Of a stretch of DNA of 64,000 nucleotides, positions 22,099 through 38,285 are shown in pieces. How positions within the stretch are numbered: the stretch's first letter is position 1; every line of letters begins with the position of its first letter. The stretch comes from Bacteroidota bacterium (GTDB taxonomy: Bacteria > Bacteroidota > Bacteroidia > Bacteroidales > GCA-2711565), in NCBI GenBank assembly GCA_018816945.1, contig JAHIVC010000069.1:37339-101338 (forward strand), read 5' to 3'. The notes under the pieces are model-generated. The model saw nothing but the letters and a program-made list of their open reading frames with translations, was not told where the DNA came from and did not search any database. Both the position numbers and the translations under genes were made by a program.

Positions 22099-22647
22099 TT
22101 ATCTCTTCATTAATTCTTTAAAGTCATTCCTGCTGTATATTCCAGGACTTGCATGCGAACCATAATTCATTTCAATATTCACATATTTAATTGAATTATT
22201 TTCTGTCAATGTAAAAACTGTTTCACCAAGAAAACAAAATGCACCCGTAGAACCCATTTGTTCACCTAAATATTCGTCTTCTATTATTCGAATTCTAATT
22301 GTGTCTGACGATTGGTCAATATATTCTAATTTGCTTTTTGCTGTCCTTCTATTTAGTATTTCAATTAATTCACTAGGTGTCTTTGAAACTGAGTCTAAAA
22401 GTTTGCCTTTTTCCAAGAATTCATAATTTCTATTTGTGTCAAATTCAGTATGCCAATAAAAGTCTGTAATTATCACAGAATTGAAGTCATAATAATTTTC
22501 ACACTTATTCAATTCATAATTCCAGCTTCCACCACTGTCAAGACACGAATCAATCGCAAGAAACTTTCTTGTCCATATAGTTCCAAAAATTGAAATGATT
22601 ATGATTACAAGAATTAATGTTCCAATAAGTACTTTTTTATTCATCAC
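22099..22647 (-). CDS. Hypothetical membrane-anchored/secreted protein
   Basis: 182 aa with an N-terminal hydrophobic anchor. No motifs recognised. Confidence 0.4.
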   Translation of the reverse strand: MMNKKVLIGTLILVIIIISIFGTIWTRKFLAIDSCLDSGGSWNYELNKCENYYDFNSVIITDFYWHTEFDTNRNYEFLEKGKLLDSVSKTPSELIEILNRRTAKSKLEYIDQSSDTIRIRIIEDEYLGEQMGSTGAFCFLGETVFTLTENNSIKYVNIEMNYGSHASPGIYSRNDFKELMKR

Positions 22648-23133
22648 AGTTCAGTTTATAAAAATGCACGCCAACTCTGTTAAATGTTCACCTTTCTTCC
22701 ACAAAAACATCCAAATTTGCAAGTATTGTTTACTTTTTGTGGTTTTATATCTATCATAAATTCTTCAATCATCTTCATGATTTTAATTTTTAAACGGGGA
22801 GAAAATCAAATATACATAAAAGATCAATATTTCAACTTAATAGTTTAAAAAATACTGATTTAACAGGATCATAAGTCCTAATCCTTAGTTGATAAGGTCT
22901 CCGGTAAACACAAAACCATAAGCCCGCCGAATAAGATTAGCCCGTAATTTTACGCAAAACCCTTCCTTTTTTTACTGGTTTTTAATTGAAAAACCTGCTG
23001 CTTTGTCGCTGATTAAAACGGTACGTTGCGCCCTGTTTCGGCCACCGTATCCGAAATACCTTTACACCATAAAATTTAATTAATCTAACGAATAAAAAAA
23101 ACCTGCAATTAATAACAATAAAAAAGAAGAGTC

Positions 23134-23634
23134 ATGAAAACTAACAAAAAGATTTTAATCGTTGACGACGACGTTGATGTAATCACGGTAGCCCAAACCA
23201 TCCTGACAAAAGAAGGATATACCGTAATTTCCGCATCCGGAAAAGAAGAAGGACTTGAACTGCTTCGAACCGAAAAACCCGATATGGCCATATTGGACGT
23301 AATGATGACAACTCATTACGAAGGATTTGAATTGGCAAATGAAATGCTGAACAATCCTGATCTTAAAAATGTCCCATTCCTTATCCAAACATCTATTGAT
23401 GTTCTGACCACAACTAAGGCCAGTGTTCAGGATATGGCCCGCGAGTTTCGTCGCGATTCAAATTTTAAAGATTTAAATGTACTGCTGGTTAAAAATGTTA
23501 CCGATGGCAGCGCAGGTATCGATTATAAAACCGATGACGGAACTTCAGTGTTTTTCCCTGTTGGCGGATTCCTTACCAAACCTATTGATGGAACTAAATT
23601 GGTAAGTGAAGTAAATAAATTAATGAAAAAATAA
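23134..23634 (+). CDS. Stand-alone response regulator receiver protein
   Basis: 166 aa with KILIVDDD and the phospho-acceptor context DMAILDVMM. No output domain. Confidence 0.85.
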   Translation: MKTNKKILIVDDDVDVITVAQTILTKEGYTVISASGKEEGLELLRTEKPDMAILDVMMTTHYEGFELANEMLNNPDLKNVPFLIQTSIDVLTTTKASVQDMAREFRRDSNFKDLNVLLVKNVTDGSAGIDYKTDDGTSVFFPVGGFLTKPIDGTKLVSEVNKLMKK

Positions 23635-23812
23635 GGGGATTTATTTTCATGATGAAAGTTTGAATAAAAGCAAATGATGAATTGGTAAAAGGGCGCGGTC
23701 GAAATAGAGTTTCGGCTTCCTGCCTGACGGTTTACCTGCCGAAGGAATGGCAGGCAGGCGCTCAAAATCCTTCAAAAACTTTCAATCATTAATAAAACTT
23801 AATGCAGATAAG

Positions 23813-24271
23813 ATGAGTAGGAAAGATATATTTTCAAAATATCAGGAATCAGGGAGAGAAAATCTTATTCCTGTTTTACAGGACATCCAAAACGAAGAGG
23901 GATTTTTATCAGAAGATTCAATTATTGAGGTAGGCAAGTATCTTCATTTGCCAACGAGTAAAATATATGGCGTAGCTACCTTTTATAACCAATTCAGGTT
24001 TAATGCTACTGGCAAATATCATATTCAAATATGCAGGGGAACGGCTTGTCACGTTTTGGGTTCTGCATCTGTTCTGGAAATTCTGGAAAAAACATTAAAA
24101 ACAAAAGCCGGAGAAACCACAAAAGATGGAGTGTTCAGTATAGAAGTGGTGGCATGTATCGGTGCTTGCGGATTGGCTCCGGTAATCTGCATCAATGGAA
24201 ATTTTCATGCAAAAGTCACAAATCAGTCAATTGTTGAAATTATTGATAATTATAGGAATTTAAGCGAATAA
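23813..24271 (+). CDS. hydC: [FeFe]-hydrogenase NuoE-like [2Fe-2S] subunit (HydC/HndA-type)
   Basis: Cys pattern CRGTAC...CIGACGLAP, typical of thioredoxin-like 2Fe-2S NuoE. The ORF opens at 23747, but the in-frame ATG at 23813 (MSRKDIFSKYQ) fits family length. It also avoids the GC hairpin at 23719-23758. Confidence 0.8.
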   Translation: MSRKDIFSKYQESGRENLIPVLQDIQNEEGFLSEDSIIEVGKYLHLPTSKIYGVATFYNQFRFNATGKYHIQICRGTACHVLGSASVLEILEKTLKTKAGETTKDGVFSIEVVACIGACGLAPVICINGNFHAKVTNQSIVEIIDNYRNLSE

Positions 24272-24274
24272 ATC

Positions 24275-26224
24275 ATGGAAGGCACTGAAAATACAGTTAA
24301 GGAATTTTTCATAAATGAAGTTTTACGGGATTATTCCAATAATTCGAAAGATAAGGAAACGCTTAAAAAGTTGTCGTTTTACAAAAATGAAACTATTGAT
24401 AAACCAATCATCTATATTGGTGCCGGAACTTGCGGTTTAGGAGCAGGTGCCGATAAAACCATCCATAAAACAAGACAATATTTAGCAGATAAAAACATTG
24501 AGGCGCGTATCGTTAAAACCGGTTGTATTGGTTTATGTTCATCAGAACCTATTATGGATGTTCAATTACCGGGGCATAACCGTATATCTTTCGAAGCGAT
24601 TACCGAGGATAAAGTTGATGCATTACTTGATGCCATTTTTAAACTCGAACTTCCCGGTGAAAAGCCAATTGGTCAGTTTATACTACCGGATAGCAGAATC
24701 TGGGAAGGTGTAGTTGATATTAACAAACATCCATTTTTTGCGAACCAGCAAAGATTGGTTTTGAAGAATTGCGGAATTATTGATCCGGTCAGCATCGAAG
24801 AGTATATCGCCAAAGGCGGATATAAAAGTTTTGTAAAAACCATCAGCATATATAATCCGGCAGAAGTGTGCCAACTTATTCTCGACAGCGGTTTGCGAGG
24901 CAGAGGAGGAGGGGGATTTCCTTCGGGAATGAAATGGAAATTTGCTAATAAAGAAATCAGTGATCAAAAATATTTGATCTGCAATGCAGATGAAGGTGAT
25001 CCGGGCGCATTTATGGATCGCGCAGTTATCGAAGGGGATCCGCATAAATTAATTGAAGGAATGGCCATTGCAGCTTTCGGAATTGGAGCTACAAAGGCAT
25101 ACATCTATATCAGGGCCGAATACCCATTGGCTATTGAGCGATTGTATCTGGCCATTCAGCAAGCCAAAGATTATGGTTTGGTTGGAAAAAATATTTTTGG
25201 CACGGGTGTAGATTTTGAAATTAAGGTTAAAATGGGTGCAGGGGCATTTGTTTGTGGAGAAGAAACTGCCCTAATGCAGAGTATTGAAGGTAAAAGAGGA
25301 ATGCCAAAGCCTCGGCCCCCATTCCCGACCACCAGTGGATTATTTGGTAAACCAACTGTTATTAATAATGTTGAAACGCTTTCGAATGTCCCTGAAATAA
25401 TTGAAAAAGGCAAAGAATGGTTTGCTTCGATTGGAACCGAAAAAAGTAAAGGAACAAAAGTTTTTGCACTCTCCGGAAAAATCACGTTGACCGGTTTGAT
25501 CGAAGTGCCAATGGGAACTACCATTCGTGATATTTTATTCAAAATTGCCGGAGGCATTAAAGATGGTAAGAAATTCAAAGCCGTTCAAATCGGAGGTCCA
25601 TCAGGGGGATGTATTACTGAGCAGAATCTGGATATTCAAATAGATTACGATTCATTATTAGCTGTGGGTGCTATGATGGGTTCAGGCGGACTTGTTGTAA
25701 TGGATGAAGATACCTGTATGGTTGATGTGGCTAAATTCTTTATGGATTTTATTCAACGTGAAAGTTGTGGAAAGTGCATCCCATGCAGGGAAGGAACCAA
25801 ACGTATGCTTGAGATTCTTGAAAGTATCACCAATAAGCCCCATAGCCAAACCAATAATGAGGCACTCGAACGATTTAAAGGGATCATGCAGCTTGAAAAA
25901 TTGGCAAGGGTCATTAAAGATACTTCCTTATGTGGATTGGGACAATCAGCTCCAAATCCGGTATTGAGCACACTCCTTTGGTTTCGGGACGAATATGATG
26001 CACATATTTATGATCGAAAATGCCCGGCCGGGATTTGTACTAATCTGAGGACTTTCAAAATTGATGTAGATGTTTGTACGGGATGTACTGTTTGTTCGAA
26101 GAAATGCCCTACAGGAGCCATTATCGGAGCCAAAAAAACACCGCATTTTATCGTTGAAGATAAATGTATTGGATGTGGATCATGTGAAGAGGTTTGTAAG
26201 TTTAATGCGATTAGCGTCGTTTAA
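24275..26224 (+). CDS. hydB: [FeFe]-hydrogenase NuoF-like NAD(P)H/FMN subunit (HydB/HndC-type)
   Basis: 649 aa with GRGGGGFPSGMKWKF (FMN/NADH site), ESCGKCIPCREG (N3 cluster) and a C-terminal 2x[4Fe-4S] domain (CTGCTVCSKKCP, CIGCGSCEEVC). Confidence 0.9.
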   Translation: MEGTENTVKEFFINEVLRDYSNNSKDKETLKKLSFYKNETIDKPIIYIGAGTCGLGAGADKTIHKTRQYLADKNIEARIVKTGCIGLCSSEPIMDVQLPGHNRISFEAITEDKVDALLDAIFKLELPGEKPIGQFILPDSRIWEGVVDINKHPFFANQQRLVLKNCGIIDPVSIEEYIAKGGYKSFVKTISIYNPAEVCQLILDSGLRGRGGGGFPSGMKWKFANKEISDQKYLICNADEGDPGAFMDRAVIEGDPHKLIEGMAIAAFGIGATKAYIYIRAEYPLAIERLYLAIQQAKDYGLVGKNIFGTGVDFEIKVKMGAGAFVCGEETALMQSIEGKRGMPKPRPPFPTTSGLFGKPTVINNVETLSNVPEIIEKGKEWFASIGTEKSKGTKVFALSGKITLTGLIEVPMGTTIRDILFKIAGGIKDGKKFKAVQIGGPSGGCITEQNLDIQIDYDSLLAVGAMMGSGGLVVMDEDTCMVDVAKFFMDFIQRESCGKCIPCREGTKRMLEILESITNKPHSQTNNEALERFKGIMQLEKLARVIKDTSLCGLGQSAPNPVLSTLLWFRDEYDAHIYDRKCPAGICTNLRTFKIDVDVCTGCTVCSKKCPTGAIIGAKKTPHFIVEDKCIGCGSCEEVCKFNAISVV

Positions 26225-26241
26225 TTTTTAATACTAAGGAG

Positions 26242-27966
26242 ATGAGTTTCTTAATAGAAGTAAATAATAAAATGCTGGAGGCACAAGAGGGAGAACTGCT
26301 TTTGGAAACATTAAACAGAAATGGTATTAAGGTTCCAACATTGTGCCATCTGAAAAATTCAATGCCATCCGGTGCTTGCCGAATGTGTGTAGTTGAAAAC
26401 AAAAAGTCGGGTAAATTAATCACTGCTTGTTCTCATCCTTCCGAACAGGGAATGAATATATTAACGCATTCGCCAAGGGTAATTGAATCGCGTAAAACTA
26501 TCGTTGAATTGTTGCTTTCAAATCATCCCGACGATTGTTTGTATTGCGTTCGAAACAGGAATTGTGAACTCCAAACTTTGGCCGACGAACTTCAGGTTCG
26601 CGAACGAAAAATCAGAGGTAAAAAAAATAATTATAATATCGATCGCTCAAGCGCCAGTATTGTTAGGGATCCGGATAAATGTATTTTATGTGGCAGATGT
26701 GTCAGGGTTTGCCAGGATATGATGGGCGTTACAGCAATTGACTTTATTAACAGAGGAAGTCGCTCCGTAATCGGAACCAGTTTTAACCGTGGGTTGAATA
26801 CCTCAAGTTGTGTGAATTGTGGTCAGTGTATTTTGGTTTGCCCAACGGGTGCATTATCCGAAAAAAATCACTTTGGTGAAATTCAGGATGCACTTGCAAA
26901 CCCTGAAAAAACGGTGGTTATTCAATATGCACCTGCTATTTCAGTATCTATTGCCGAGGAATTTAATATGGAAGCAGGCAAAGATTTGAACGGGATTTTA
27001 AATTCGGCTTTACGAAAAATCGGTTTCGATCGCGTTTTTGATACCACCTTTTCAGCCGATTTAACCATCATGGAAGAATCTGCCGAATTGATTGATCGGA
27101 TTACTACCGGTGGCGTAATGCCAATGATAACAAGCTGTTGCCCTGCCTGGATCAAATATGCCGAAGAGTTTTATCCTGAACTGATACCGAATATCTCTTC
27201 GTGTAAATCGCCACAGCAAATGTTAGGAGCGGTTATCAAATCATATTGGGCAGAAAGCGAAGGAATTAAACCTGAAAATATTTACTCTGTTTCAATCATG
27301 CCGTGTACTGCCAAAAAGTTTGAAGCACAGAGAGAAGAAATGACCCAGCATGGAATAACCGATGTGGATGCCGTAATTACTACCCGTGAGTTAGGCGATT
27401 TTATTCGAATGATGGGTGTTGATGTGCATAATATTGAGCCTGAACAAGCCGATTCACCTCATGGTTTCATGAGTTCGGCCGGAAAACTGTTTGGCGCATC
27501 GGGAGGGGTAATGGAAGCAGCAATCCGAACAGCTTATTTTAAAATCACCGGTAAAGAATTAGCCGATCTTAAAATACCTGAAATAAGAGGACTTAAAGGT
27601 CGTAAAGAAGCAAAAATAAAGATTGGTGAACTTGAGATTGGTGTAGCCGTGGTGAATGGATTGGCAAATGCAGCCAAACTTCTTGATGAAATTAAAGCAG
27701 GAAAAAATGACATTCATTTTATTGAAGTGATGGCTTGCCCAGGAGGTTGCATCAATGGAGGAGGTCAACATATTGGCGCCTCTGAAGAAGCAATCAGGGC
27801 AAGAATGCAATCTATTTACTCGATTGATAATGATGCAATGATAAGGGTATCTCATAAAAACCCTGAAGTGATTGCTTTGTACGAAAACTATTTGGAAGAG
27901 CCATTGGGAAATAAAAGTCACCATCTCTTACATACTAAGTACACTAAAAGAAATGTGTTAAAATAA
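26242..27966 (+). CDS. hydA: [FeFe]-hydrogenase catalytic subunit, group A3-like
   Basis: The N-terminus has 2Fe-2S and NuoG-like clusters plus two ferredoxin motifs (CILCGRCVRVC, CVNCGQCILVCP). H-cluster motifs are L1 TSCCPAW, L2 MPCTAKKFE and L3 EVMACPGGCINGGGQ. Confidence 0.95.
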   Translation: MSFLIEVNNKMLEAQEGELLLETLNRNGIKVPTLCHLKNSMPSGACRMCVVENKKSGKLITACSHPSEQGMNILTHSPRVIESRKTIVELLLSNHPDDCLYCVRNRNCELQTLADELQVRERKIRGKKNNYNIDRSSASIVRDPDKCILCGRCVRVCQDMMGVTAIDFINRGSRSVIGTSFNRGLNTSSCVNCGQCILVCPTGALSEKNHFGEIQDALANPEKTVVIQYAPAISVSIAEEFNMEAGKDLNGILNSALRKIGFDRVFDTTFSADLTIMEESAELIDRITTGGVMPMITSCCPAWIKYAEEFYPELIPNISSCKSPQQMLGAVIKSYWAESEGIKPENIYSVSIMPCTAKKFEAQREEMTQHGITDVDAVITTRELGDFIRMMGVDVHNIEPEQADSPHGFMSSAGKLFGASGGVMEAAIRTAYFKITGKELADLKIPEIRGLKGRKEAKIKIGELEIGVAVVNGLANAAKLLDEIKAGKNDIHFIEVMACPGGCINGGGQHIGASEEAIRARMQSIYSIDNDAMIRVSHKNPEVIALYENYLEEPLGNKSHHLLHTKYTKRNVLK

Positions 27967-29957
27967 TGACAGTCAATATGGGACACGCAGAACGAAATAA
28001 GCTGGTTATCACGGTAAAAGACAAATGCCGTGTGTGCTATACCTGCGTGCGTGAATGCCCGGTTAAGGCAATAAAGATTAATAATGGGCAGGCAGAAGTA
28101 ATAAATGAAAGGTGCATCGGGTGTGGCAATTGTGTGAAGGTGTGCAGTCAGGGAGCGAAAGTTTTTCTTGACTCAAAAAGCGAGGTTGAACAATTGCTTA
28201 ATTCCGATGAAAGGGTCATCGCATGTATAGCTCCAAGCTTTCCGGCCGAGTTTTCTGATATTAAGGATTATCAGTGTTTGGTTAGAATGATTAAAAGATT
28301 GGGTTTTTTAAAAGTCGTGGAAGTTGCTTTTGGAGCCGATTTGATTGCATGTGAATATCGTCAGATGATAGAAAGCGATGACCCTACACCCTACATTTCC
28401 TCTGACTGTCCATCTATTGTTTATTATATTGAACATTATCATCCCGATTTGGTCAAAAATCTATCGCCGATAGCATCGCCAATGGTTGCAATAACAAGGG
28501 TGATTCATGAAGAATATGGAAAAGATGTGAAGGTTGTTTTTATCGGGCCCTGCATCGCCAAAAAAGCAGAATCAAATGAGGTTGATGAAGCCATCACGTT
28601 TAAAGAGCTTAGGGAATTATTTGAGAAATATCAAATCGTGCCGCAAAAAACCGATCGTTGCGATTTTGATCCGCCCAGAGCTTCCAGAGGAGCTGTATTT
28701 CCTGTTTCCAGGGGTTTAATTCAATCTATTGATAAAAGTGATGATTTGGTGAATGGAAAAATTATTACTGCTTCAGGTAAGGATAACTTCAAGGAAATTA
28801 TCAAAGAATTTGAAAGTGGGGAAATTGATTGTAAATACATGGAATTGCTATGCTGCAAAGGATGCATCATGGGCCCGGGTATGACCAATAAGGATAAGCG
28901 ATATTTCAAAAGAAGCCAAATCAGCAATTATGTAAAACAAAAGCTGGAAGTGTTTGATCAGGAAGAGTGGGAGGGCTATATTAAAAAGTACAGCCATCTC
29001 GACTTGTCACAAAATTTCACTTCAAACGATCGAAGAGTAGCCAGACCCGATCAGAAATCTATCGAGAAAGTGCTATTAAGCATGGGTAAGAGAAAGGCTT
29101 CTGATTATCTGAATTGCGGAACCTGTGGATATGATACGTGCATAGAACACGCGGTAGCTATTGTTCAGGGATATGCCGAAACTGAAATGTGTTTGCCATA
29201 TAGCATTGAAAAATTGCATAAATCAATCGAAGATTTAAATATTTCGAACGAAAATCTTGACAATGCGCGTATAGCACTTAAACAATCGGAAAAACTTGCG
29301 CATATGGGCCAATTGTCGGCCGGTATTGCCCACGAATTGAACAATCCTTTGGGGGTCATTACCATGTACAGCAATATCCTGAAGGAAGAAACAACTCCTG
29401 ATAATCCAATGTTTAAGGATTTGGAATTGATTGTTGACCAAACAGAGCGATGCAAAAAAATAGTAGGCGGCTTGTTGAATTTTGCCCGCAAAAGCCAGGT
29501 TAAAAAGGTTGAAACAAATCTCGAAAAATTTGTAATTCACAGCACTGAATCTATTGTTTTACCATCAAATATTGAATTGGAAGTAAAAACAAATCTGACT
29601 GATTCACTGGTAATGATCGATCAGGATCAGATGATGCAGGTTTTAACCAATCTGGAGAAAAATGCCATAGAAGCCATGCCAAACGGAGGTATTCTAAGCA
29701 TCGATATTACTGATACCGAGTCAAATTTTAAAATTATAATTTCCGATACGGGGGTTGGTATTCCGCAGGAGAACATGGATAAACTTTATACTCCGTTTTT
29801 TACAACAAAAGCATTGGGGAAAGGCACCGGACTAGGATTACCGTTGGTATATGGAATTGTTAAAATGCATAGGGGCCAAATTAATGTGGTGTCAAATACG
29901 GATAAGAGTAAAGGACAAACGGGTACTTCATTTATAATAGATGTTCCTAAATTTTAG
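27966..29957 (+). CDS. [FeFe]-hydrogenase-like (H-cluster domain) sensor histidine kinase
   Basis: 663 aa. N-terminal 2x[4Fe-4S] (CRVCYTCVRECP, CIGCGNCVKVC). Hydrogenase large-domain homology with variant motifs SSDCPS (L1), IGPCIAKKAE (L2) and ELLCCKGCIMGPG (L3). A CGTCGYDTC Fe-S-like segment, the HisKA H-box AHELNNPLG, and HATPase (DTGVGI, GTGLGL). ATG overlaps the hydA stop (TAATG). Confidence 0.85.
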   Translation: MTVNMGHAERNKLVITVKDKCRVCYTCVRECPVKAIKINNGQAEVINERCIGCGNCVKVCSQGAKVFLDSKSEVEQLLNSDERVIACIAPSFPAEFSDIKDYQCLVRMIKRLGFLKVVEVAFGADLIACEYRQMIESDDPTPYISSDCPSIVYYIEHYHPDLVKNLSPIASPMVAITRVIHEEYGKDVKVVFIGPCIAKKAESNEVDEAITFKELRELFEKYQIVPQKTDRCDFDPPRASRGAVFPVSRGLIQSIDKSDDLVNGKIITASGKDNFKEIIKEFESGEIDCKYMELLCCKGCIMGPGMTNKDKRYFKRSQISNYVKQKLEVFDQEEWEGYIKKYSHLDLSQNFTSNDRRVARPDQKSIEKVLLSMGKRKASDYLNCGTCGYDTCIEHAVAIVQGYAETEMCLPYSIEKLHKSIEDLNISNENLDNARIALKQSEKLAHMGQLSAGIAHELNNPLGVITMYSNILKEETTPDNPMFKDLELIVDQTERCKKIVGGLLNFARKSQVKKVETNLEKFVIHSTESIVLPSNIELEVKTNLTDSLVMIDQDQMMQVLTNLEKNAIEAMPNGGILSIDITDTESNFKIIISDTGVGIPQENMDKLYTPFFTTKALGKGTGLGLPLVYGIVKMHRGQINVVSNTDKSKGQTGTSFIIDVPKF

Positions 29958-29968
29958 GGTTTTAATCA

Positions 29969-30105
29969 AGAAGACAGAATACAGAAGACACAAGTAATAA
30001 GTAATAAGTAATAAGTAACAACCTGCCTGCCGCAGGCAGGGTAACAAGTATCAAGTAACCAGTAACCAGCAACCAGTAACCAGCAACCAGTAACCAGCAA
30101 ACTAA
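29969..30105. repeat. Intergenic element: 7-nt periodic tandem repeats flanking the GC-rich palindrome CCTGCCTGCCGCAGGCAGG
   Basis: agaagac/agaatac/.../ataagta x3 on the left, and the palindrome at 30022-30040. On the right, accagta/accagca alternate about six times. Confidence 0.85.
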
Positions 30106-30145
30106 AATCTGAATCTTGAATCGAACAACTTAAAAAAATAAAAAA

Positions 30146-30544
30146 ATGAAAAGCGACATACGAAAAACAATATTAGTAGTTGATGATGATAGCGATTATC
30201 TGTTTCAGATGAAACTCCAGATTGAAAAGTTTGGATTTAATGTTATAACCGCTGAAGGTCAAAATCAAGGAATTAAAGTTCTTGAAACTACTAAGCCTGA
30301 TATGGCAATTATTGATTTAATGATGGAGAATATGGATAGCGGATTTATTCTTGGTCATAAAATAAAACAAAAATACCCCGATGTACCTGTTATTATTGCA
30401 AGTGCCGTTACTGCTGAAACAGGGATGATCTTTGGTCTGGAATCGAAAGAGGATAAAACCTGGATTAAAGCTGATCTTTATCTTGAAAAAGGATTAAGAT
30501 TGGATCAACTTCACAGGGAAATTAATAAACTTCTAAAGCTCTAA
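30146..30544 (+). CDS. Single-domain response regulator (CheY-like)
   Basis: 132 aa with ILVVDDD and DMAIIDLMM. Confidence 0.85.
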   Translation: MKSDIRKTILVVDDDSDYLFQMKLQIEKFGFNVITAEGQNQGIKVLETTKPDMAIIDLMMENMDSGFILGHKIKQKYPDVPVIIASAVTAETGMIFGLESKEDKTWIKADLYLEKGLRLDQLHREINKLLKL

Positions 30545-30546
30545 AA

Positions 30547-31668
30547 ATGGAAATTTTAAAGGTATTGGTAGTTGACGACGAACCCGGAATTCGTTCAGGA
30601 ATCGGGAGGATCATGCGCAATTTCACGGTCAGTTATCCTTTCATGGAAGAAGATTTCGCATTTGAATTAATCGATGCCGAGACAGGTGAAATGGCGATTG
30701 AGATTATTGAATCGCAAAATATCGATATCATTTTACTCGATAATCAGCTTCCGGGTATTAACGGTATTGAAGTGTTGGAGTATATCCGCAAAATTCAGTA
30801 CGATGCATTGGTAATGATGATCACCAGCTATGCTTCACTCGATTTGGCCGTTAAAGCAACAAATATCGGAGCATACAATTTCGTACCAAAACCTTTTACA
30901 CCCCAGGAACTTAAAACTGCTATCGAAAGCATAACCAAGCAACTGTATTTAAAGCGGATGACCCGGAAAATGAATAAGGAGGGAAAACAAATCCGCTTTC
31001 AGTTTCTTTCGGTGCTTTCACACGAATTAAAATCGCCTATTAATGCCATCGAAGGTTATTTGAAAATAATGCAGGAAAAGCAAGTAGGAGATAATATTGA
31101 TGATTATGCCATTATGATTGATCGTTCGATTGAACGACTAAAAGGAATGCGGACGCTAATCCTTGATTTACTTGATTTGACTAAGCTTGAGTCAGGGAAA
31201 AAATCCAGGACCATCAATCAGGTTGATATTTATGAAGTCGCTAAAATGGCGATGGATACCATTGAACCTCTTGCAATTCAAAAGCAGGTAAAGGTTTATT
31301 TGAATGCAGAGGAGAATATGTACATATCATCTGATAAAGATGAGTTGGAAATAATATTGAATAACCTTTTATCGAATGCAATAAAATATAATAAAGACGA
31401 AGGGAAGGTTTTTTTAAATATTTTAAAAGATGAGAAGAGCGTTAAGATAATCATTGAAGATACCGGAATAGGTATGAGTTCGGAGGATATGGAAAAACTG
31501 TTTCAGGAGTTTGTGAGAATTAAAAACTCAAAAACCAAAAATGTGACCGGAAGTGGATTGGGACTCTCAATAACTAAAAAAATGGTGGAACTAAATGGAG
31601 GTACCATTAATGTCGATAGTACTCCCGATGTGGGAAGTAAATTCACGGTAGTCTTACCGCTTAAATAA
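30547..31668 (+). CDS. Receiver-histidine kinase hybrid (N-terminal REC, HisKA, HATPase)
   Basis: 373 aa with VLVVDDEP...ILLDNQLPG, the H-box LSHELKSPINAIEG, then EDTGIGM and GSGLGLSI. It starts 3 nt after the preceding receiver gene. Confidence 0.85.
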   Translation: MEILKVLVVDDEPGIRSGIGRIMRNFTVSYPFMEEDFAFELIDAETGEMAIEIIESQNIDIILLDNQLPGINGIEVLEYIRKIQYDALVMMITSYASLDLAVKATNIGAYNFVPKPFTPQELKTAIESITKQLYLKRMTRKMNKEGKQIRFQFLSVLSHELKSPINAIEGYLKIMQEKQVGDNIDDYAIMIDRSIERLKGMRTLILDLLDLTKLESGKKSRTINQVDIYEVAKMAMDTIEPLAIQKQVKVYLNAEENMYISSDKDELEIILNNLLSNAIKYNKDEGKVFLNILKDEKSVKIIIEDTGIGMSSEDMEKLFQEFVRIKNSKTKNVTGSGLGLSITKKMVELNGGTINVDSTPDVGSKFTVVLPLK

Positions 31669-31679
31669 AGACTAATAAG

Positions 31680-33107
31680 ATGATCTTTAAGCCACAAAAA
31701 TATAACATCAAGGATGAATCAATGGTTGATTTCATTGATCCCGAAGAAATAAATGATTATTTAGATCGGGCCAAACCAACAACTGAAATGGTTAGGCAAG
31801 TGATTTTAAAGTCATTAAACAAAGAGCGATTAAATTTAGAGGAAGTTGCCTTGCTGGTAAAAGCTACAGATCCTGAACAAATTGAAATGATTAAGGAAGG
31901 GGCGAAGACCCTTAAACGCAATGTTTATGGAAACCGGATTGTTTTATTTGCACCTCTTTATGTCGGTAATCTTTGCAATAATAATTGTAAATATTGTGGA
32001 TTTAGGGCATCGAACAGCAATGCTGAACGAAAAACCCTTAATGATCAGGAATTGCACGAAAATGTAGTTGCTTTAGAACAAAATGGTCAAAAACGACTCA
32101 TTTTGGTTTTTGGTGAACATCAAAAATATAATGCACAATACATTGCCGATACCGTTCGAAAGGTATATGCCATACGATCAGGAAATGGTGAAATCCGCAG
32201 GGTGAATATCAATGCTGCACCTATGGAAATTGAAGATTTTAAAACAGTCAAAGAATCAGGAATCGGAACTTATCAGATTTTTCAGGAAACTTATCATCCT
32301 GAAGCATATAAAAAATATCATCTATCCGGAAAAAAAGCAGATTTTAACTATCGGATCACATCCCTAGATCGTGCCATGGAAGCCGGAATTGATGATGTTG
32401 GGATTGGTGTTTTATTTGGTTTGTATGATTGGAAATATGAGGTTTTGGCTTTGGTTAGGCACACCAATCATCTGGAAGCCTGTTATAATATTGGGCCACA
32501 TACGCTCTCCTTTCCCCGTTTGCAAAAAGCGCTAAATCTTGATGTCGATGATCGGTATTTAGTAAGTGATGAGGAATTTACCCGGATCATTGCCATTCTC
32601 CGATTGGCAGTTCCTTATACAGGAATGATTTTAACAGCCAGGGAAACGGCCGAAATTAGAAGAGAAGTATTGCAATATGGTTGTTCGCAAATTGATGCAG
32701 GAACAAAAATTGAAATTGGAGCCTATGCTGAAAAATTTCAGAAGAACCAGGAACTTAAGAAGGAGCAGTTTCAAATTAACGACAATCGTTCGTTAAATGA
32801 CGTTATCGAAGAATTAATTGATCAGGATTACCTGCCTTCATTCTGCACGGCATGTTACCGATTGGGTAGAACAGGAGAGCATTTTATGGAGTTTTCGGTA
32901 CCCGGTTTTATCAAAAGGTATTGTTCATCGAATGCTTTACTAACCCTGGCAGAATACCTGATGGACTATGCACCTCCTAAAACTGCTGAGAGAGGATGGA
33001 CGCTTATAGAAAAAAGCATGCTTGATTTGGAAGGGTTTCAGGACATCGACGAAGTACATGCTCGTTTACAGAGAATAAAAAACGGGGAACGCGATTTATA
33101 TTTTTAG
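31680..33107 (+). CDS. hydG: [FeFe]-hydrogenase maturase HydG (radical SAM tyrosine lyase)
   Basis: Radical SAM motif CNNNCKYCGF. The C-terminal CTACYRLGRTGEHFMEFSVPGFIKRYC matches the HydG CX2CX22C motif exactly by my count. Confidence 0.9.
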   Translation: MIFKPQKYNIKDESMVDFIDPEEINDYLDRAKPTTEMVRQVILKSLNKERLNLEEVALLVKATDPEQIEMIKEGAKTLKRNVYGNRIVLFAPLYVGNLCNNNCKYCGFRASNSNAERKTLNDQELHENVVALEQNGQKRLILVFGEHQKYNAQYIADTVRKVYAIRSGNGEIRRVNINAAPMEIEDFKTVKESGIGTYQIFQETYHPEAYKKYHLSGKKADFNYRITSLDRAMEAGIDDVGIGVLFGLYDWKYEVLALVRHTNHLEACYNIGPHTLSFPRLQKALNLDVDDRYLVSDEEFTRIIAILRLAVPYTGMILTARETAEIRREVLQYGCSQIDAGTKIEIGAYAEKFQKNQELKKEQFQINDNRSLNDVIEELIDQDYLPSFCTACYRLGRTGEHFMEFSVPGFIKRYCSSNALLTLAEYLMDYAPPKTAERGWTLIEKSMLDLEGFQDIDEVHARLQRIKNGERDLYF

Positions 33108-33118
33108 CTTATAAAGCC

Positions 33119-34327
33119 ATGAGCAAAGGAACAGATTTAAAACCGCATATAGGTATTTTTGGAAGAAGGAACAATGGGAAAAGTTCATTTATAAATGCTA
33201 TTATTGGTCAGGAAGTAGCGATTGTTTCGGATCAGTCAGGTACAACCACTGATCCTGTAAAAAAATCGGTTGAGATTTTTGGAGTTGGTCCTGTTGTAAT
33301 GATCGATACGGCCGGAATTGACGATACAGGCGAATTGGGCTCAAAAAGGGTAGCGAAAACACGGGAGGTGATTAAAACCATCGATCTGGCCATTTTAATC
33401 ATTGCAAAAAACACTTTTGGTGATGACGAAGTTGAACTGTTGAATGAATTTAAAGCGTTTAATATCCCGGCCATCATTATTCATAATAAAGCTGATATTG
33501 AGGAACTTGATTTTGATACGCTTGATCGGATTAAATTCTTCTTAAACTCTGAAGTGCTTGATTTTAGCGCCATTGATAAGGAGAATAAGGAAAAAGTAAT
33601 TGAAGCCATCAAAAGAAATATTCCAAAAACGGCATACCAAAAACCTTCTTTATTCAAAGGAATCCTAAAACCAAAAGACGTGGTGCTTTTGGTAACACCA
33701 ATCGACTCGGAAGCTCCTGATGGCAGAATGATTTTACCTCAGGTGATGGCCTGGCGCGATGTGCTCGACAAGGATTGTATCTGCATGTCGGTGAAAGAAA
33801 CAGAACTGGAATATTTTATGAAACTTGGAATTAAACCTGCGTTGGCGGTTACCGATAGTCAGGTTTTCGATTATGTAAATTCAGTTCTTCCTGCAGAAAT
33901 CCCATTAACAAGTTTTAGTATTCTTTTTGCCCGATTAAAGGGCGATCTGGATGTTTACATCAAAGGAACTAATCAAATCGATAAATTACAAAATGAGGAT
34001 AAAATATTGATCCTGGAATCATGCACCCATCAGTTAAGTTGTGAAGATATCGGAAGGTTTAAAATACCCGTTTGGTTGGAGAAGCATACCGGTAAAAAAT
34101 TACATTACGAATTCCGATCTGGATTAAATGCCTCATTAGAAGATCTGACTGAATATGCTTTGGTTATTCAATGTGGTGGCTGTGTTGCAACCCGCAAGCA
34201 AGTCCTGAACAGGTTGCAAATCGTATCGGGGAAAAATATTCCAATTACTAATTATGGGATGCTGATTGCTTATGTGAATGGTATTTTTGAGAGAGTTATT
34301 CAACCTTTTTATCAAGATGAAACATAA
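33119..34327 (+). CDS. hydF: [FeFe]-hydrogenase maturase GTPase HydF
   Basis: P-loop GRRNNGKSS, DTAG, NKAD, and C-terminal Cys/His motifs (SCTH...QCGGC). Confidence 0.9.
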   Translation: MSKGTDLKPHIGIFGRRNNGKSSFINAIIGQEVAIVSDQSGTTTDPVKKSVEIFGVGPVVMIDTAGIDDTGELGSKRVAKTREVIKTIDLAILIIAKNTFGDDEVELLNEFKAFNIPAIIIHNKADIEELDFDTLDRIKFFLNSEVLDFSAIDKENKEKVIEAIKRNIPKTAYQKPSLFKGILKPKDVVLLVTPIDSEAPDGRMILPQVMAWRDVLDKDCICMSVKETELEYFMKLGIKPALAVTDSQVFDYVNSVLPAEIPLTSFSILFARLKGDLDVYIKGTNQIDKLQNEDKILILESCTHQLSCEDIGRFKIPVWLEKHTGKKLHYEFRSGLNASLEDLTEYALVIQCGGCVATRKQVLNRLQIVSGKNIPITNYGMLIAYVNGIFERVIQPFYQDET

Positions 34328-35399
34328 TCGTTTAAAGGAAATCCTTCAAAAATCTTTTCTTGAGAAAGAAGACATTCTTATGCTTCTCAACACTTACGGG
34401 GCGGAAAAGGAATTGTTATTTGAATATGCCTCGATGGTCAAAAATCAAAATGTCGGAAACAAGGTTTATTTGAGAGGGTTGATCGAGTATTCAAATATTT
34501 GTAAAAAGGATTGTTATTATTGCGGTATCCGATCGTCAAACCATTATTTTTGCCGTTATGAAGTTACTCCGCAGGAGATAGCTGAGGCATGTAATTTTGC
34601 TGTTCAAAATCGATTGGGTTCAATGGTCGTGCAAAGTGGCGAATTACAATCAGATGCATTTACCGATAAAATATTGGAGCTTATCAAAATAATTAAATCC
34701 CGTTCCAACGGAAAAATGCGCATCACTTTATCTTGTGGAGAACAAAAACCCGAAGTTTATCAAAAATGGTTCGATGCAGGTGCCGAGCGTTATTTGTTGA
34801 GGATTGAAACTTCCAATCAGGAATTGTATAAAAAAATTCACCCCGACAATGGTATTCATAATTATCAGAATAGAATTGATGCTTTAAATAACCTGAAAAA
34901 GATAGGGTTTCAAACAGGCACGGGAGTAATGATAGGTCTTCCCTACCAAACCATTGAAGATTTGGCCGATGATATAATTTTTATGCGCGATATTGATATC
35001 GACATGTGCGGAATGGGGCCATTTATTGAACATGAAAACACCCCATTATACAGCCATAGACAATCTTTACTTCCATTACAGGCACGTTATCAATTAGGAC
35101 TTAAAATGATTGCTGTTTTACGCATTGTTATGAAAGATATCAATATTGCATCAACAACTGCTTTGCAGGCCATTGACCCTCGTGGTAAACGCAGTGGTTT
35201 AGAAGTTGGAGCTAATGTAATCATGCCAAATATCACCCCGGTGAAATATAAATCCAATTATCATCTGTATAAAGACAAACCAGGATCAGGCTTAAGTATT
35301 GAAGATGAGTTAAATTATTCGGTTCAAACCATTGAAAAAGCAAATTGTGTTGTTGCTTATGAAGAGTCCGGTGATTCGCTGCGTTTTGTAAACAGATAA
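34317..35399 (+). CDS. hydE: [FeFe]-hydrogenase maturase HydE (radical SAM)
   Basis: Radical SAM motif CKKDCYYCGIR with BioB-like architecture. The ORF opens at 34278. I prefer the ATG at 34317 (MKHNRLKEIL), which overlaps the hydF stop (ATGAAACATAA). The start is uncertain. Confidence 0.85.
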   Translation: MKHNRLKEILQKSFLEKEDILMLLNTYGAEKELLFEYASMVKNQNVGNKVYLRGLIEYSNICKKDCYYCGIRSSNHYFCRYEVTPQEIAEACNFAVQNRLGSMVVQSGELQSDAFTDKILELIKIIKSRSNGKMRITLSCGEQKPEVYQKWFDAGAERYLLRIETSNQELYKKIHPDNGIHNYQNRIDALNNLKKIGFQTGTGVMIGLPYQTIEDLADDIIFMRDIDIDMCGMGPFIEHENTPLYSHRQSLLPLQARYQLGLKMIAVLRIVMKDINIASTTALQAIDPRGKRSGLEVGANVIMPNITPVKYKSNYHLYKDKPGSGLSIEDELNYSVQTIEKANCVVAYEESGDSLRFVNR

Positions 35400-35442
35400 A
35401 TTCGTAAATTTGAGGTATGTTTCCTGAACAAAAATTATTAAA

Positions 35443-37536
35443 ATGGGAAGGTTCAAATCAATTATACCTCTTAAGTTAAGGCTTTTCTTTCCAATTGCTT
35501 TCATTATCATATTTATTATCGCAGTGGCTACTTTGCTATTCATCAATAGCTCAATCAAAACATTCAATCTGCAAATTGAAAACAATTTAGAATTGGAAGT
35601 GAAAACCATTACTAAAATGTTTGAACGGGAAAGGCAATTAAAGCTGGAAAAGGTAAAAACCAATTTAAAAGTGGCGCATAGCCTTTTTTATAATGAAACC
35701 TTTAAAATTACCGGTGATAAGATAAGTGTTCATGCAATAAATCAGGAAAACGGTTCAGTGCATAATGCACTTATTAATAAGTGGTTATTGAATGGAGAAT
35801 TGCTCAATAATAATTTTGTATTTGTTGATAGCATTAAAAATTTACTCGGAGGCACGGCGACTATCTTTCAAAAAATCGATAGTGGTTATATCAGGGTATC
35901 TACCAATGTTCAAAATGCAGATGGTGTCAGAGCTGTAAATTCTTATATCCCTAATTCATCGCCTGTGGTTCAGGCAATAGAAAAAGGCGAGACCTATTTT
36001 GGTCGTGCTTTTGTGGTTAATGATTGGTATATTACTGCCTATGAACCGATTGTTATAAAAAATCAAATAGTTGGGATTTTATATGTTGGCGACAGGGAAA
36101 AAGATCTGCCAAAATTAAGAGAAATCCTTTATAGTTTGAAAATTGGAAAAACAGGCTATCCATTTGTTTTTGACAGGAGTGGATTGATGTTGATACATCC
36201 ATCTATTGAAGGTGAGAATTGGAAGGATAGTACGTTGTTCGTTAAAAGTCAGGATCCCAATCAAAAAATTATCCGATACAACTTTCTGGGAAAAGAAAAG
36301 ATTGCCGCTAAAAATTATTATGAAGATTTTGAGATTTATATTTTAGCCTCAATCGAAGCTGAAAGGGAAAACGGGAATTTTATCCGTAATACCATCCTCA
36401 CCTCTTCGCTTATAGCAATCATAATCATCATCATTTTGCTGTCGTTTTTATATTTTCTTACGGCTGATCGTATTTATAAATACTTTGTTCAATTAGATAT
36501 TTCCAATAAAAAGCTTATTTATGCCAGGGAAGCATTAAAGCAGTCGGAGGATCGGTTTCAAAAGTTGTTTAATAGTACCGGAGACGATATTTTTGTGACC
36601 GACACGAATGAAAATATTGTTGAAGTAAATCAGGCAAGTTGCAATACATTAGGATATACCCGTGAAGAATTACTTTCTAAAAAAATGAGTGAGATCAAAT
36701 CTCAAAAGTATGCAACATTGGTATCAGAAAACCGAAAAAAGATATATGAACTTGGAACATATACCTTTGAGTCGGAACATATGGCAAAGGATGGTAAGAT
36801 CATTCCTGTTGAGGCGACTTCAAGGGTTTTAGATTATAACAATGAAAAATTGATTTTGAGTGTAGTCCGAAATATTGGAACTCGAAAAGAAACCGAAAGG
36901 GAAATATTAAGTACGGTTATCCGAACTGAGGAACGGGAGCGGGAAAGATTTGCAAAGGACATGCACGATAGTGTCGGACCGCTTTTATCAACCATAAAAT
37001 TGTACGTAAATGAATTAAAATCACCAAACCTCGAAACTGAAGAACGTACTGATTTTGTTAATCAAACCAATGAGATTCTGGATGAAGCGATCATTTCAAT
37101 TCGCACCATATCCAATAACCTTATGCCTCGGGTAATTCATAAATATGGGTTGATTAAGGCACTCGAGTCTTTTTGTGATAAAGTAAATAAAACGAATAAA
37201 ATCAATATTCAATTAGAGTCAAAACACATTTCCGATCGATTAGATCAAAATTTAGAACTTATCTTATTTAGGGTAATTACAGAACTTATTACCAATACAC
37301 TAAAGCATGCAAATGCTAAAAATATCAATATTGAATTGGAGAAAAGCCGTAATAAAATTATCATGAGTTTTAAAGATGACGGGATTGGTTTTGATATTGA
37401 TAAAATTATGAATTCGGAACATTTAGGAATGGGACTCAAAAATATTATCAGCCGCATTAAATCGATCAATGGCGACTATCATTTTATAAGCTTTCCGGAT
37501 AATGGATTTCAAATTAGGGTTAATATAGATTTATAA
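35443..37536 (+). CDS. Cache-domain sensor histidine kinase (PAS, HisKA_3/NarX-LiaS type)
   Basis: 697 aa. TM1, then a periplasmic Cache-like region (ATIFQKIDSGYIRVSTNV...GILYVGD; GKTGYPFVFDRSGLMLIHP) and TM2. Then PAS, the HisKA_3 H-box DMHDSVGPLLS and HATPase. Confidence 0.85.
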   Translation: MGRFKSIIPLKLRLFFPIAFIIIFIIAVATLLFINSSIKTFNLQIENNLELEVKTITKMFERERQLKLEKVKTNLKVAHSLFYNETFKITGDKISVHAINQENGSVHNALINKWLLNGELLNNNFVFVDSIKNLLGGTATIFQKIDSGYIRVSTNVQNADGVRAVNSYIPNSSPVVQAIEKGETYFGRAFVVNDWYITAYEPIVIKNQIVGILYVGDREKDLPKLREILYSLKIGKTGYPFVFDRSGLMLIHPSIEGENWKDSTLFVKSQDPNQKIIRYNFLGKEKIAAKNYYEDFEIYILASIEAERENGNFIRNTILTSSLIAIIIIIILLSFLYFLTADRIYKYFVQLDISNKKLIYAREALKQSEDRFQKLFNSTGDDIFVTDTNENIVEVNQASCNTLGYTREELLSKKMSEIKSQKYATLVSENRKKIYELGTYTFESEHMAKDGKIIPVEATSRVLDYNNEKLILSVVRNIGTRKETEREILSTVIRTEERERERFAKDMHDSVGPLLSTIKLYVNELKSPNLETEERTDFVNQTNEILDEAIISIRTISNNLMPRVIHKYGLIKALESFCDKVNKTNKINIQLESKHISDRLDQNLELILFRVITELITNTLKHANAKNINIELEKSRNKIIMSFKDDGIGFDIDKIMNSEHLGMGLKNIISRIKSINGDYHFISFPDNGFQIRVNIDL

Positions 37537-37538
37537 TT

Positions 37539-38186
37539 ATGAATGAAACTGTTAAAGTATTTGTAGTTGACGATCACGAAATTTTTCGGAACGGATTAAA
37601 AATGGTGCTTGGCAAACTGAAGTATACCAAGGTGATTGCCGAAGCTTCGAATGGTGCAGATTTTCTGAACTTGCTTAAAGAAAATGAGCCGGATATCGTT
37701 TTAATGGACATCGAAATGCCTATCATGAATGGCATTGATGCAACAATTAATGCATTGAAAATTAAGCCTGATTTGAAAATTATTGCACTTACCATGTTTA
37801 ATGAAGATGAATACATCCAAAGTATGATCGATGCTGGTGTTAAAGGTTTTTTGATTAAAAACATCAATAAGGAAACCCTTGATAAGGCCATACAAACAGT
37901 GTTAAATGGTGGGAACTATTACTCCGAAGAATTGTTTGATTTCTTTACTAAACAAATTGTAAAAGACGATAAGCCAAAATCTGATGTTGTTAAACTTACC
38001 CGTCGCGAAAAAGAAATATTACAATTGGTTTGTGAGGGTTTGAGCAATCAGGAAATTGCTGATATTTTATTTGTGAGTGAACGTACCATCGTTGGACATA
38101 AATCAAACCTGCTTTCAAAAATGGGCTGTAAAAACACGATTGGCATGATGTCGTACGCTATAAAAAATAAGCTGGTCGTACTATAA
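37539..38186 (+). CDS. NarL/LuxR-family response regulator
   Basis: 215 aa with VFVVDDH...VLMDIEMP and a C-terminal LuxR HTH (LTRREKEILQLVCEGLSNQEIADILFVSERTI). Confidence 0.9.
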   Translation: MNETVKVFVVDDHEIFRNGLKMVLGKLKYTKVIAEASNGADFLNLLKENEPDIVLMDIEMPIMNGIDATINALKIKPDLKIIALTMFNEDEYIQSMIDAGVKGFLIKNINKETLDKAIQTVLNGGNYYSEELFDFFTKQIVKDDKPKSDVVKLTRREKEILQLVCEGLSNQEIADILFVSERTIVGHKSNLLSKMGCKNTIGMMSYAIKNKLVVL

Positions 38187-38285
38187 TTTGCACCTTGAAA
38201 AACCGCTTTGTTTGTTTTTTCGTAATGGGCTCTCATTGCGTATTAAAAAACCATTACTTTTATACTCTCTACTAAAAAACTAAAA

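Follow-up and report, generated by a model that had tools for sequence, protein, structure and literature searches.

H2 sensing by the [FeFe]-hydrogenases of groups C and D is still called putative (PMC8924675), and only two sensory forms have been characterised: TmHydS of group C, which carries a PAS domain, and TamHydS of group D. The HydDB classification also holds a group C1, "histidine kinase-linked (putative)", whose members are possibly H2-sensing via histidine kinases (PMC5037454). Here we describe a gene of this kind in a 64,000-nt stretch from an uncultured Bacteroidales bacterium (GCA_018816945.1, contig JAHIVC010000069.1, 37,339 to 101,338 of the forward strand). This whole stretch is called the window, and all positions below count from its first nucleotide; the genes at 23134-38186 lie on its + strand. 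The gene (27966..29957) encodes a 663-residue HydS-type sensor kinase that consists of two [4Fe-4S] clusters, an H-domain, a C-terminal [4Fe-4S] domain, HisKA and HATPase_c, and that carries an Asp at the site of the proton-relay Cys, C299 of the hydrogenase CpI.

Fusion of an H-domain to a kinase is widespread and already catalogued, so the novelty claimed for it in a preliminary description of this DNA was overstated: the class is known, and the gene adds one more C1 member. The same description held that kinase-fused forms have been classified and not characterised, which agrees with the class papers (PMC5037454, PMC7768429, PMC11406978) and with our literature searches, where no biochemical study of a kinase-fused [FeFe]-hydrogenase form was found. 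The C1 papers that we found describe proteins with no essential difference from the sensor kinase, and none of them mentions its Asp at the Cys299 site. In Petrimonas mucosa, a cultured species also of the Bacteroidales, ING2E5A_0849 is likewise a kinase-linked H-domain beside an Hnd-type bifurcating hydrogenase and a proposed H2 sensor (PMC5037454, PMC7768429). The C1 proteins of Hydrogenedentota share the HATPase_c domain and are often encoded beside A3 genes; the authors of that study could hardly find the P1-P3 motifs in them and left H2 sensing open (PMC11406978).

TmHydS resembles the sensor kinase in its two [4Fe-4S] clusters, an H-domain without Cys299 and with Gly for Met353, the motif Cx2Cx4Cx16C, and a place near a bifurcating hydrogenase (PMC8163306, PMC10407848), but its Cys299 site is occupied by Ala, its Fe-S domain is followed by a PAS domain and it lacks a kinase, where the sensor kinase has Asp, no PAS domain and a directly joined HisKA kinase. 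TamHydS combines the same two [4Fe-4S] clusters, H-domain and Cx2Cx4Cx16C motif without a PAS domain, beside a trimeric bifurcating hydrogenase (PMC8163306). The earlier statement that the studied sensory examples carry PAS domains is therefore right for TmHydS but not for TamHydS. A kinase-like ATPase is encoded near TamHydS by a separate gene (PMC8163306), whereas in the sensor kinase the two are fused. TamHydS further differs in Ala137, a Ser at the Met353 position and a proton path based on Glu252, as against Asp147, Gly194 and Leu251 in the sensor kinase, and the residues flanking its C-terminal cluster ligands, D378 and D403, have Asn383 and Met408 as equivalents. These TamHydS positions were mapped through the CpI numbering in PMC10407848 and other papers.

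Asp at the relay site is known from engineered enzymes: CpI C299D (PDB code 6GLZ), CaI C298D and CrHydA1 C169D have the same TS-D-CP chemistry beside the bridgehead amine and keep substantial H2-evolution activity (PMC9563086). These are laboratory mutants whose proton pathway is otherwise intact, whereas the Asp of the sensor kinase is natural and fixed in its clade, with the remaining canonical pathway gone. The HoxBC/HoxJ system of Cupriavidus and Rhodobacter, built on a regulatory [NiFe]-hydrogenase (group 2b), follows a similar logic, in which H2 is reported by a slow hydrogenase and a histidine kinase receives the signal and governs hydrogenase genes (PMC5037454, Table 1). It differs in having an unrelated metal site and family, separate proteins that communicate through a PAS-like domain, and a known output regulator, HoxA.

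Domain architecture and class of the sensor kinase

Conservation was assessed in a set of 121 close relatives, with identities down to 61%, and, for the kinase boxes and N-terminal cysteines, in 56 relatives. The N-terminal ferredoxin-like domain (residues 16-64, 28011..28157) matches the Pfam Fer4 families and contains two motifs of the CxxCxxCxxxC(P/S) type, C21xxC24xxC27xxxC31 and C50xxC53xxC56xxxC60, whose cysteines are invariant in the 56 relatives. The H-domain follows (residues 83-304, 28212..28877); it is recognised by Pfam, alignment to CpI, family conservation and Foldseek, and its match to PF02906 (Fe_hyd_lg_C; 168.8 bits, E 2e-49) spans profile positions 2-245 of 245. The C-terminal Fe-S domain (residues 382-411, 29109..29198; PF04060 'FeS', E 1e-8) displays the Cx2Cx4Cx16C motif as C384, C387, C392 and C409, all invariant in the 121 relatives, and the stretch CGTCGYDTC that had been picked out earlier proves to be the start of this longer motif. 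The transmitter (29304..29948) is composed, according to Pfam, of HisKA (residues 447-509, H-box His456) and HATPase_c (residues 552-661, with N, G1, F and G2 boxes). H456 lies within SAGIAHELNNP, and N562, N566, D594-x-G596-x-G598, F611 and G618-x-G620-x-G622-x-G624 are invariant in the 56 relatives, so the transmitter boxes are intact. The E-values of the domain matches are far under chance level, and the Pfam matches bear out the two ferredoxin-type clusters, H-domain and complete HisKA/HATPase transmitter of the preliminary description.

The Fe-S domain and the kinase are joined by a linker of residues ~410-446 (29193..29303), in which I414, L417, I421, L424, L431 and L438 follow a 3-4 hydrophobic spacing. 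From C409, the last Fe-S ligand, to the phospho-acceptor His456 there are 47 residues, and the intervening segment is helix-prone. An AlphaFold monomer model, built from the 56 relatives, has pLDDT values of 85-96 over the H-domain and a helix at 410-426, and its confidence is low in the linker alone (pLDDT <50 at 420-463). The region at ~410-447 had been called coiled; the hydrophobic spacing supports a helical reading of it, but the model gives that reading little confidence. A PAS domain between the Fe-S domain and the kinase can be rejected: Pfam has no match there, the distance from C409 to HisKA is only ~38 residues, and residues 305-446 of the model contain no beta-sheet. Foldseek superposed the first 430-460 residues on DdHydAB, CbA5H, the HydA of HydABC, and CpI, and the remainder on ZraS, in all cases with a probability of 1.0. 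For the C-terminal half, AtoS/ZraS-type kinases are the closest in NCBIfam and ZraS is the top PDB sequence match.

The gene had been reported to overlap the stop codon of hydA. The hydA stop and the first ATG of the sensor gene do share the sequence TAATG, but the overlap hinges on the choice of start codon, because the start of most homologues corresponds to Met5 (27978), with lengths of 658-660 residues and the consensus start MGHA. A start at Met5 would leave an 11-nt gap.

The sensor kinase scores far below the cutoffs of TIGR02512 for group A (101.5 bits, cutoff 406) and TIGR04105 for group B (198.9 bits, cutoff 450), while the adjacent HydA qualifies as group A. It displays the marks of the sensory groups C and D: the N-terminal two [4Fe-4S] clusters, loss of the Cys299 relay, Gly for Met353 as in TmHydS, and the C-terminal Cx2Cx4Cx16C motif, which is a signature of group C/D sensory hydrogenases in the work of Land et al. 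and later studies (PMC8163306, PMC13104023). Membership in group D (M2e) is ruled out by Gly194, which is not Ser or Thr, and by Leu251 in place of the Glu252 relay. The PAS domain after the Fe-S domain that characterises the M2f form is absent; it belongs to the M2f/C3 subtype and not to C1. Group C1 is defined by a link to a histidine kinase, here seen as HisKA and HATPase_c in the same polypeptide as the H-domain, and the nearest relatives clustered at 50% are kinase-fused as well (P0121-P0126, P0128, P0130-P0132). On this fused kinase and these relatives, the sensor kinase is placed as a member of HydDB group C1.

With a word-indexed homologue search and a limit of E <= 1e-20, 7,930 proteins were obtained. 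Among these, the best 120 clusters are full-length, 61-94% identical and of the same Pfam architecture, and nearly all come from Bacteroidales/Bacteroidota metagenome-assembled genomes; the closest genome is that of 'Bacteroidetes bacterium HGW-Bacteroidetes-17', with 95% amino-acid identity. Elsewhere, the unit of two [4Fe-4S] clusters, H-domain and PF04060 is fused to other outputs (P0155, P0160, P0158, P0242, P0125): without any domain between to a sigma-54 AAA+ activator with HTH_8, and further to a PAS-sigma-54 activator, a GAF-GAF-kinase, a PAS-kinase-REC-REC protein and a PAS-kinase. Because of these varied fusions, this predicted sensor module behaves as a portable signal-input domain.

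H-cluster motifs and the aspartate at the Cys299 site

The motifs were mapped by HMMER alignments to CpI structures and by BLASTP against the neighbouring HydA (25% identity, E 8e-26), with mutually consistent results. In L1 (SSDCP), D147 (codon 28404-28406) corresponds to CpI C299 and C148 to C300. In L2 (IGPCIAKKAE), G194, C196, K199 and E202 correspond to M353, C355, K358 and E361. In L3 (ELLCCKGC), L295, C296, C297 and C300 correspond to M497, A498, C499 and C503, and the GGGQ of group A is replaced by GPGM. All four H-cluster ligands are present as C148, C196, C297 and C300, and all are invariant in the 121 relatives. The preliminary description had proposed four retained cysteines, an Asp for the proton-relay Cys in L1, and an L3 without GGGQ and Met, and had suggested an alignment to the CpI H-domain; the alignment upholds each of these substitutions, and the CpI and HydA alignments agree in specifying C297 and C300 as the L3 ligands. 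C296 is ruled out as a ligand, being Ser in 6 of the 121 relatives while C297 is invariant.

The motifs SSDCP, GPCIAKKAE and ELLCCKGCIMGPGM thus stand against TSCCP, MPCxxKxxE and ExMxCxxGCxxGGGQP in group A. The changes are specific to the sensor paralogue, because the adjacent HydA keeps the canonical motifs (TSCCP, MPCTAKKFE, EVMACPGGCINGGGQ). The last two ligands of the sensor kinase form a CxxC, where group A has CxxxC with one residue more. We scanned 1.84 billion representatives with HMMER, using residues 1-425, which yielded 966 proteins at E <= 1e-30; among the best 150, the kinase is present in 44, and the CxxC spacing is common to 86, including 43 of the 44 kinase-fused ones. The short spacing is therefore a trait of the lineage rather than a defect of this gene. 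Several pocket residues are kept, namely A89-P90-S91 (CpI A230-P231-S232), S171-P172, K199 and F245. After the latter, CpI F417-GATGG has become F245-PVSRG in the clade, where Arg249 (28710-28712; Arg in 117 and His in 4 of the 121 relatives) corresponds to CpI Gly421 and lies near the H-cluster pocket.

The canonical proton pathway has largely disappeared from the alignment with CpI: the E279 equivalent falls within a 4-residue deletion, that of E282 (E130) is kept in only 88 of the 121 relatives, that of S319 is Ala in 107, and that of R286 is hydrophobic. The alternative relay of group D, Glu252 of TamHydS, is Val in group A (PMC10407848; CpI V423) and corresponds to Leu251 of the sensor kinase (Leu in 100, Met in 19 and Lys in 2 relatives). 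A Glu that all groups conserve, Glu289 in TamHydS, corresponds to the invariant E293. As the group A pathway is otherwise missing, and the Glu relay of group D too, D147 is, as judged from these alignments, the sole protonatable side chain that is conserved at a site with known contact to the bridgehead amine.

Besides the ligand cysteines and the four C-terminal ones, D147 and H456 are invariant in all 121 relatives, and Gly194 is invariant too. The D147 codon is GAC in 10 and GAT in 12 of 22 genomes, and since the Asp persists while its codons differ, it is maintained by selection. The residue at this site is otherwise highly variable: the best 150 of the 966 proteins have A, S, T, P, C, N, H, F, Y, V, L or W, and the only ones with Asp are two fragments of the same clade and the unrelated P0262. 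The nearest other kinase-fused clusters carry Thr (ATTCPA). The alignments thus make Asp at the Cys299 site a trait of one clade rather than a singular oddity of the sensor gene. P0262, a group C-type protein of 574 residues that lacks a kinase, likewise shows SSDCPS at L1, so the Asp seems to have arisen more than once.

Groups C and D "mostly" have Ala at the C299 site (PMC10407848); that the Cys has been lost is among the arguments for slow enzymes with a sensory role (PMC8924675). Asp and Ser are the two substitutions at this site reported to retain activity in engineered group A enzymes; exchange of Cys for Asp keeps 10-58% of the H2-evolution activity and shifts the bias toward evolution (PMC9563086, Table 3). 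The top-scoring CpI entry in the PDB for the sensor kinase is itself the engineered C299D variant, 6GLZ. In our literature searches no paper described a natural Asp at the Cys299 site, and a search on the SDCP motif gave nothing relevant. The Asp may thus be a new feature, and it is the one most worth attention. We put forward, tentatively and with some doubt, that the Bacteroidota C1 clade could be a natural "C299D", in which a carboxylate relay has been re-installed, the other group A path and the group D Glu have been lost, and coupling to the kinase proceeds without a PAS domain. If this were true, the reaction with H2 would be faster than in the Ala-type sensors TmHydS and TamHydS, or have another threshold, and phosphorylation of the His would for the first time allow [FeFe]-based H2 sensing to be read out directly by biochemistry.

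Putative H2 signalling and its alternatives

The sensor kinase is probably a soluble cytoplasmic histidine kinase derived from a hydrogenase, serving as an H2 (or H2/redox) sensor that would control hydrogen metabolism, with a predicted reactivity toward H2. What was first observed in the DNA is correct; its interpretation is reasonable yet putative, and partly supported. Directly downstream of the sensor gene are encoded a receiver-only response regulator of 132 residues (30146-30544) and a REC-HisKA-HATPase_c hybrid kinase (30547-31668), an arrangement conserved in ~20 species. These two are the likely phosphoryl acceptors, and a further candidate is a receiver-only response regulator of 166 residues at the head of the cluster (23134..23634), also conserved in ~20 species.

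In the mechanism that we propose, HydEFG would mature both HydA and the sensor kinase. H2 would bind at the sensor H-cluster and be split slowly, with Asp147 beside the bridgehead amine accepting the proton and the electrons going on to the accessory clusters. A redox or conformational change of the H-domain/C-terminal Fe-S unit would then reach the DHp helix by way of the helical linker and turn autophosphorylation of His456 on or off. The phosphoryl group would be handed to the adjacent receiver-only protein, to the receiver of the adjacent REC-kinase, or to both, and the relay would tune the expression or activity of HydABC, together with related fermentation functions, to the H2 partial pressure. 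As a speculation, the potential of the C-terminal cluster may differ from that of TamHydS, whose acidic ligand flanks are replaced by Asn383 and Met408.

A role in H2 sensing agrees with the behaviour of TmHydS and TamHydS, which bind the H-cluster and react with H2, with slow turnover (PMC8163306, PMC10407848). Several points weigh against it. The canonical proton path is, by alignment, absent beyond D147; the L3 spacing is CxxC, and since sequence alone cannot show full assembly of an H-cluster, the cluster here is a predicted one. H2 does not reduce the C-terminal cluster of TamHydS (PMC13104023), which weakens a simple redox switch at that cluster. The gene cluster also has no DNA-binding regulator of a family matching the sensor kinase, whose neighbours are receiver-only proteins and a REC-kinase.

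The same degenerate motifs could instead indicate a sensor of redox state and not of H2, whose [4Fe-4S] clusters, including that part of the H-site, equilibrate with the ferredoxin/NADH pool while the [2Fe] unit is never inserted or is irrelevant. The L1, L2 and L3 signatures are all degenerate, with a loop shorter by one residue in L3, conservation extends to three or four Fe-S sites, the PF04060 domain sits directly on the kinase linker, and the scarcely detectable P1-P3 motifs of C1 proteins have led others to question H2 sensing (PMC11406978). Yet the bridging cysteine C300, K199 (the cyanide-binding lysine, K358), the A-P-S and S-P pocket motifs, F245 and D147 are invariant across the family, and these residues are hard to explain without a [2Fe] site. 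Moreover, hydGFE are part of the same conserved cluster, and TmHydS and TamHydS bind a functional H-cluster with comparably degenerate motifs (PMC8163306). We regard a sensor of redox state alone as unlikely.

It is also rather improbable that the protein is a fourth subunit of HydABC, as has been proposed for 'BfuT'/HydS beside A3 enzymes, with a regulatory or catalytic role that is mainly post-translational, as a phosphate sink or by tuning of activity. The tight coupling to hydA, through the TAATG overlap or an 11-nt gap, would fit such a subunit, as would the receiver-only partners nearby without a matching DNA-binding regulator, and an Asp at the relay site could permit real turnover (PMC9563086). 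The solved HydABC structures (PDB codes 8A6T, 7P5H and 7Q4V), however, contain no such subunit, and the complete conserved transmitter and the downstream REC-kinase point to signalling by phosphorelay. Finally, a fusion artefact or a decayed, functionless paralogue, which has the non-canonical motifs and nothing further to speak for it, is already refuted by the conservation data: the full-length architecture recurs in >120 clusters and 21 genomes, catalytic residues and ligands do not vary, and the changes at the D147 codon are synonymous.

TmHydS and TamHydS have no enzymatic output domain, and signalling is therefore not directly measurable in them; an H2-sensing kinase-fused form would give a simple readout, autophosphorylation with versus without H2. 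The Bacteroidales clade combines a compact architecture, conserved candidate partners encoded alongside, and a fixed Asp tied to a well-studied engineered variant. Its value is that of an experimental entry point and not of a new kind of system. The bacteria of this clade are common fermenters of digesters, sediments and similar anoxic habitats, and if H2 feeds back on their bifurcating-type hydrogenase, interspecies hydrogen transfer would be affected.

Gene neighbourhood and possible regulation of the hydrogenase

The sensor gene adjoins genes for a HydABC-type [FeFe]-hydrogenase, as originally described, with hydCBA directly upstream: NuoE-like hydC (23747-24271), NuoF-like hydB (24275-26224), whose product is long at 649 residues and has two C-terminal [4Fe-4S] clusters, and hydA (26242-27966), with canonical TSCCP, MPCxxKxxE and ExMxCxxGCxxGGGQ motifs. 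HydA matches NF040763, 'NADH-dependent [FeFe] hydrogenase, group A6', with 812 bits against a cutoff of 765; by its sequence the enzyme may be truly electron-bifurcating or NADH-only. Downstream of the REC-kinase follow the H-cluster maturase genes hydG (31680-33107) and hydF (33119-34327), identified by synteny and by scores above the cutoffs of the NCBIfam models TIGR03955 / TIGR03918 (hydG/hydF), and a probable hydE (34278-35399), identified by its Radical_SAM match and synteny. The order REC, hydC, hydB, hydA, sensor kinase, REC, REC-kinase, hydG, hydF, hydE is kept in 21 loci of different species, and the neighbourhood, put at 11 genes, in ~20 Bacteroidota species. The receiver at the head of the cluster has an insertion of ~45 residues between its beta-4 region and the Lys-Pro (FLTKP), and Pfam covers 92 of 111 profile positions.

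Next come a kinase of the Cache-PAS-HisKA_3 type (35443-37536) and, as its partner by family, a response regulator of the NarL/LuxR type (37539-38186). The pair is located downstream of hydE in some relatives and upstream of the first receiver in others (loci L001-L018), and because it stays beside the hyd cluster in most relatives, its position suggests a functional link to the cluster and a possible transcriptional output. The NarL/LuxR-type protein is the sole DNA-binding regulator near the sensor gene, and its family matches the HisKA_3 kinase rather than the sensor kinase.

Because the sensor kinase resembles NtrB/ZraS/AtoS and its relatives include fusions to sigma-54 activators, we searched for sigma-54 promoters (TGGCAC-N5-TTGCW, <=2 mismatches), which gave 24 matches where chance alone would give 27; the intergenic regions of the cluster had none. 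Consensus sigma-70 promoters and terminators in 22600-38300 numbered at or below shuffle expectation, with a consensus that is ill-suited to Bacteroidota. As there is no DNA-binding regulator of a matching family and no sigma-54 promoter upstream, the conserved position is what leads us to infer that the sensor kinase would control the neighbouring hydrogenase.

The 188-bp spacer between the sensor gene and the receiver gene (29958-30145) consists of short tandem repeats, AGAAGAC x3.7, AAGTAAT x3.9, GTAACCA x8 and AACCAGTAACCAGC x3, which flank a GC-rich hairpin, CCTGCCTGC-CGC-AGGCAGG, at ~30022-40. The length of this spacer ranges from ~10 to ~500 bp in relatives, and it may be a transcript boundary or a variable regulatory element. 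Past the regulatory genes lies a gene for a 654-residue fusion of a GNAT acetyltransferase, RLAN and a RimK-like ATP-grasp domain (38286-40250), which is kept in the closest relative, L001.

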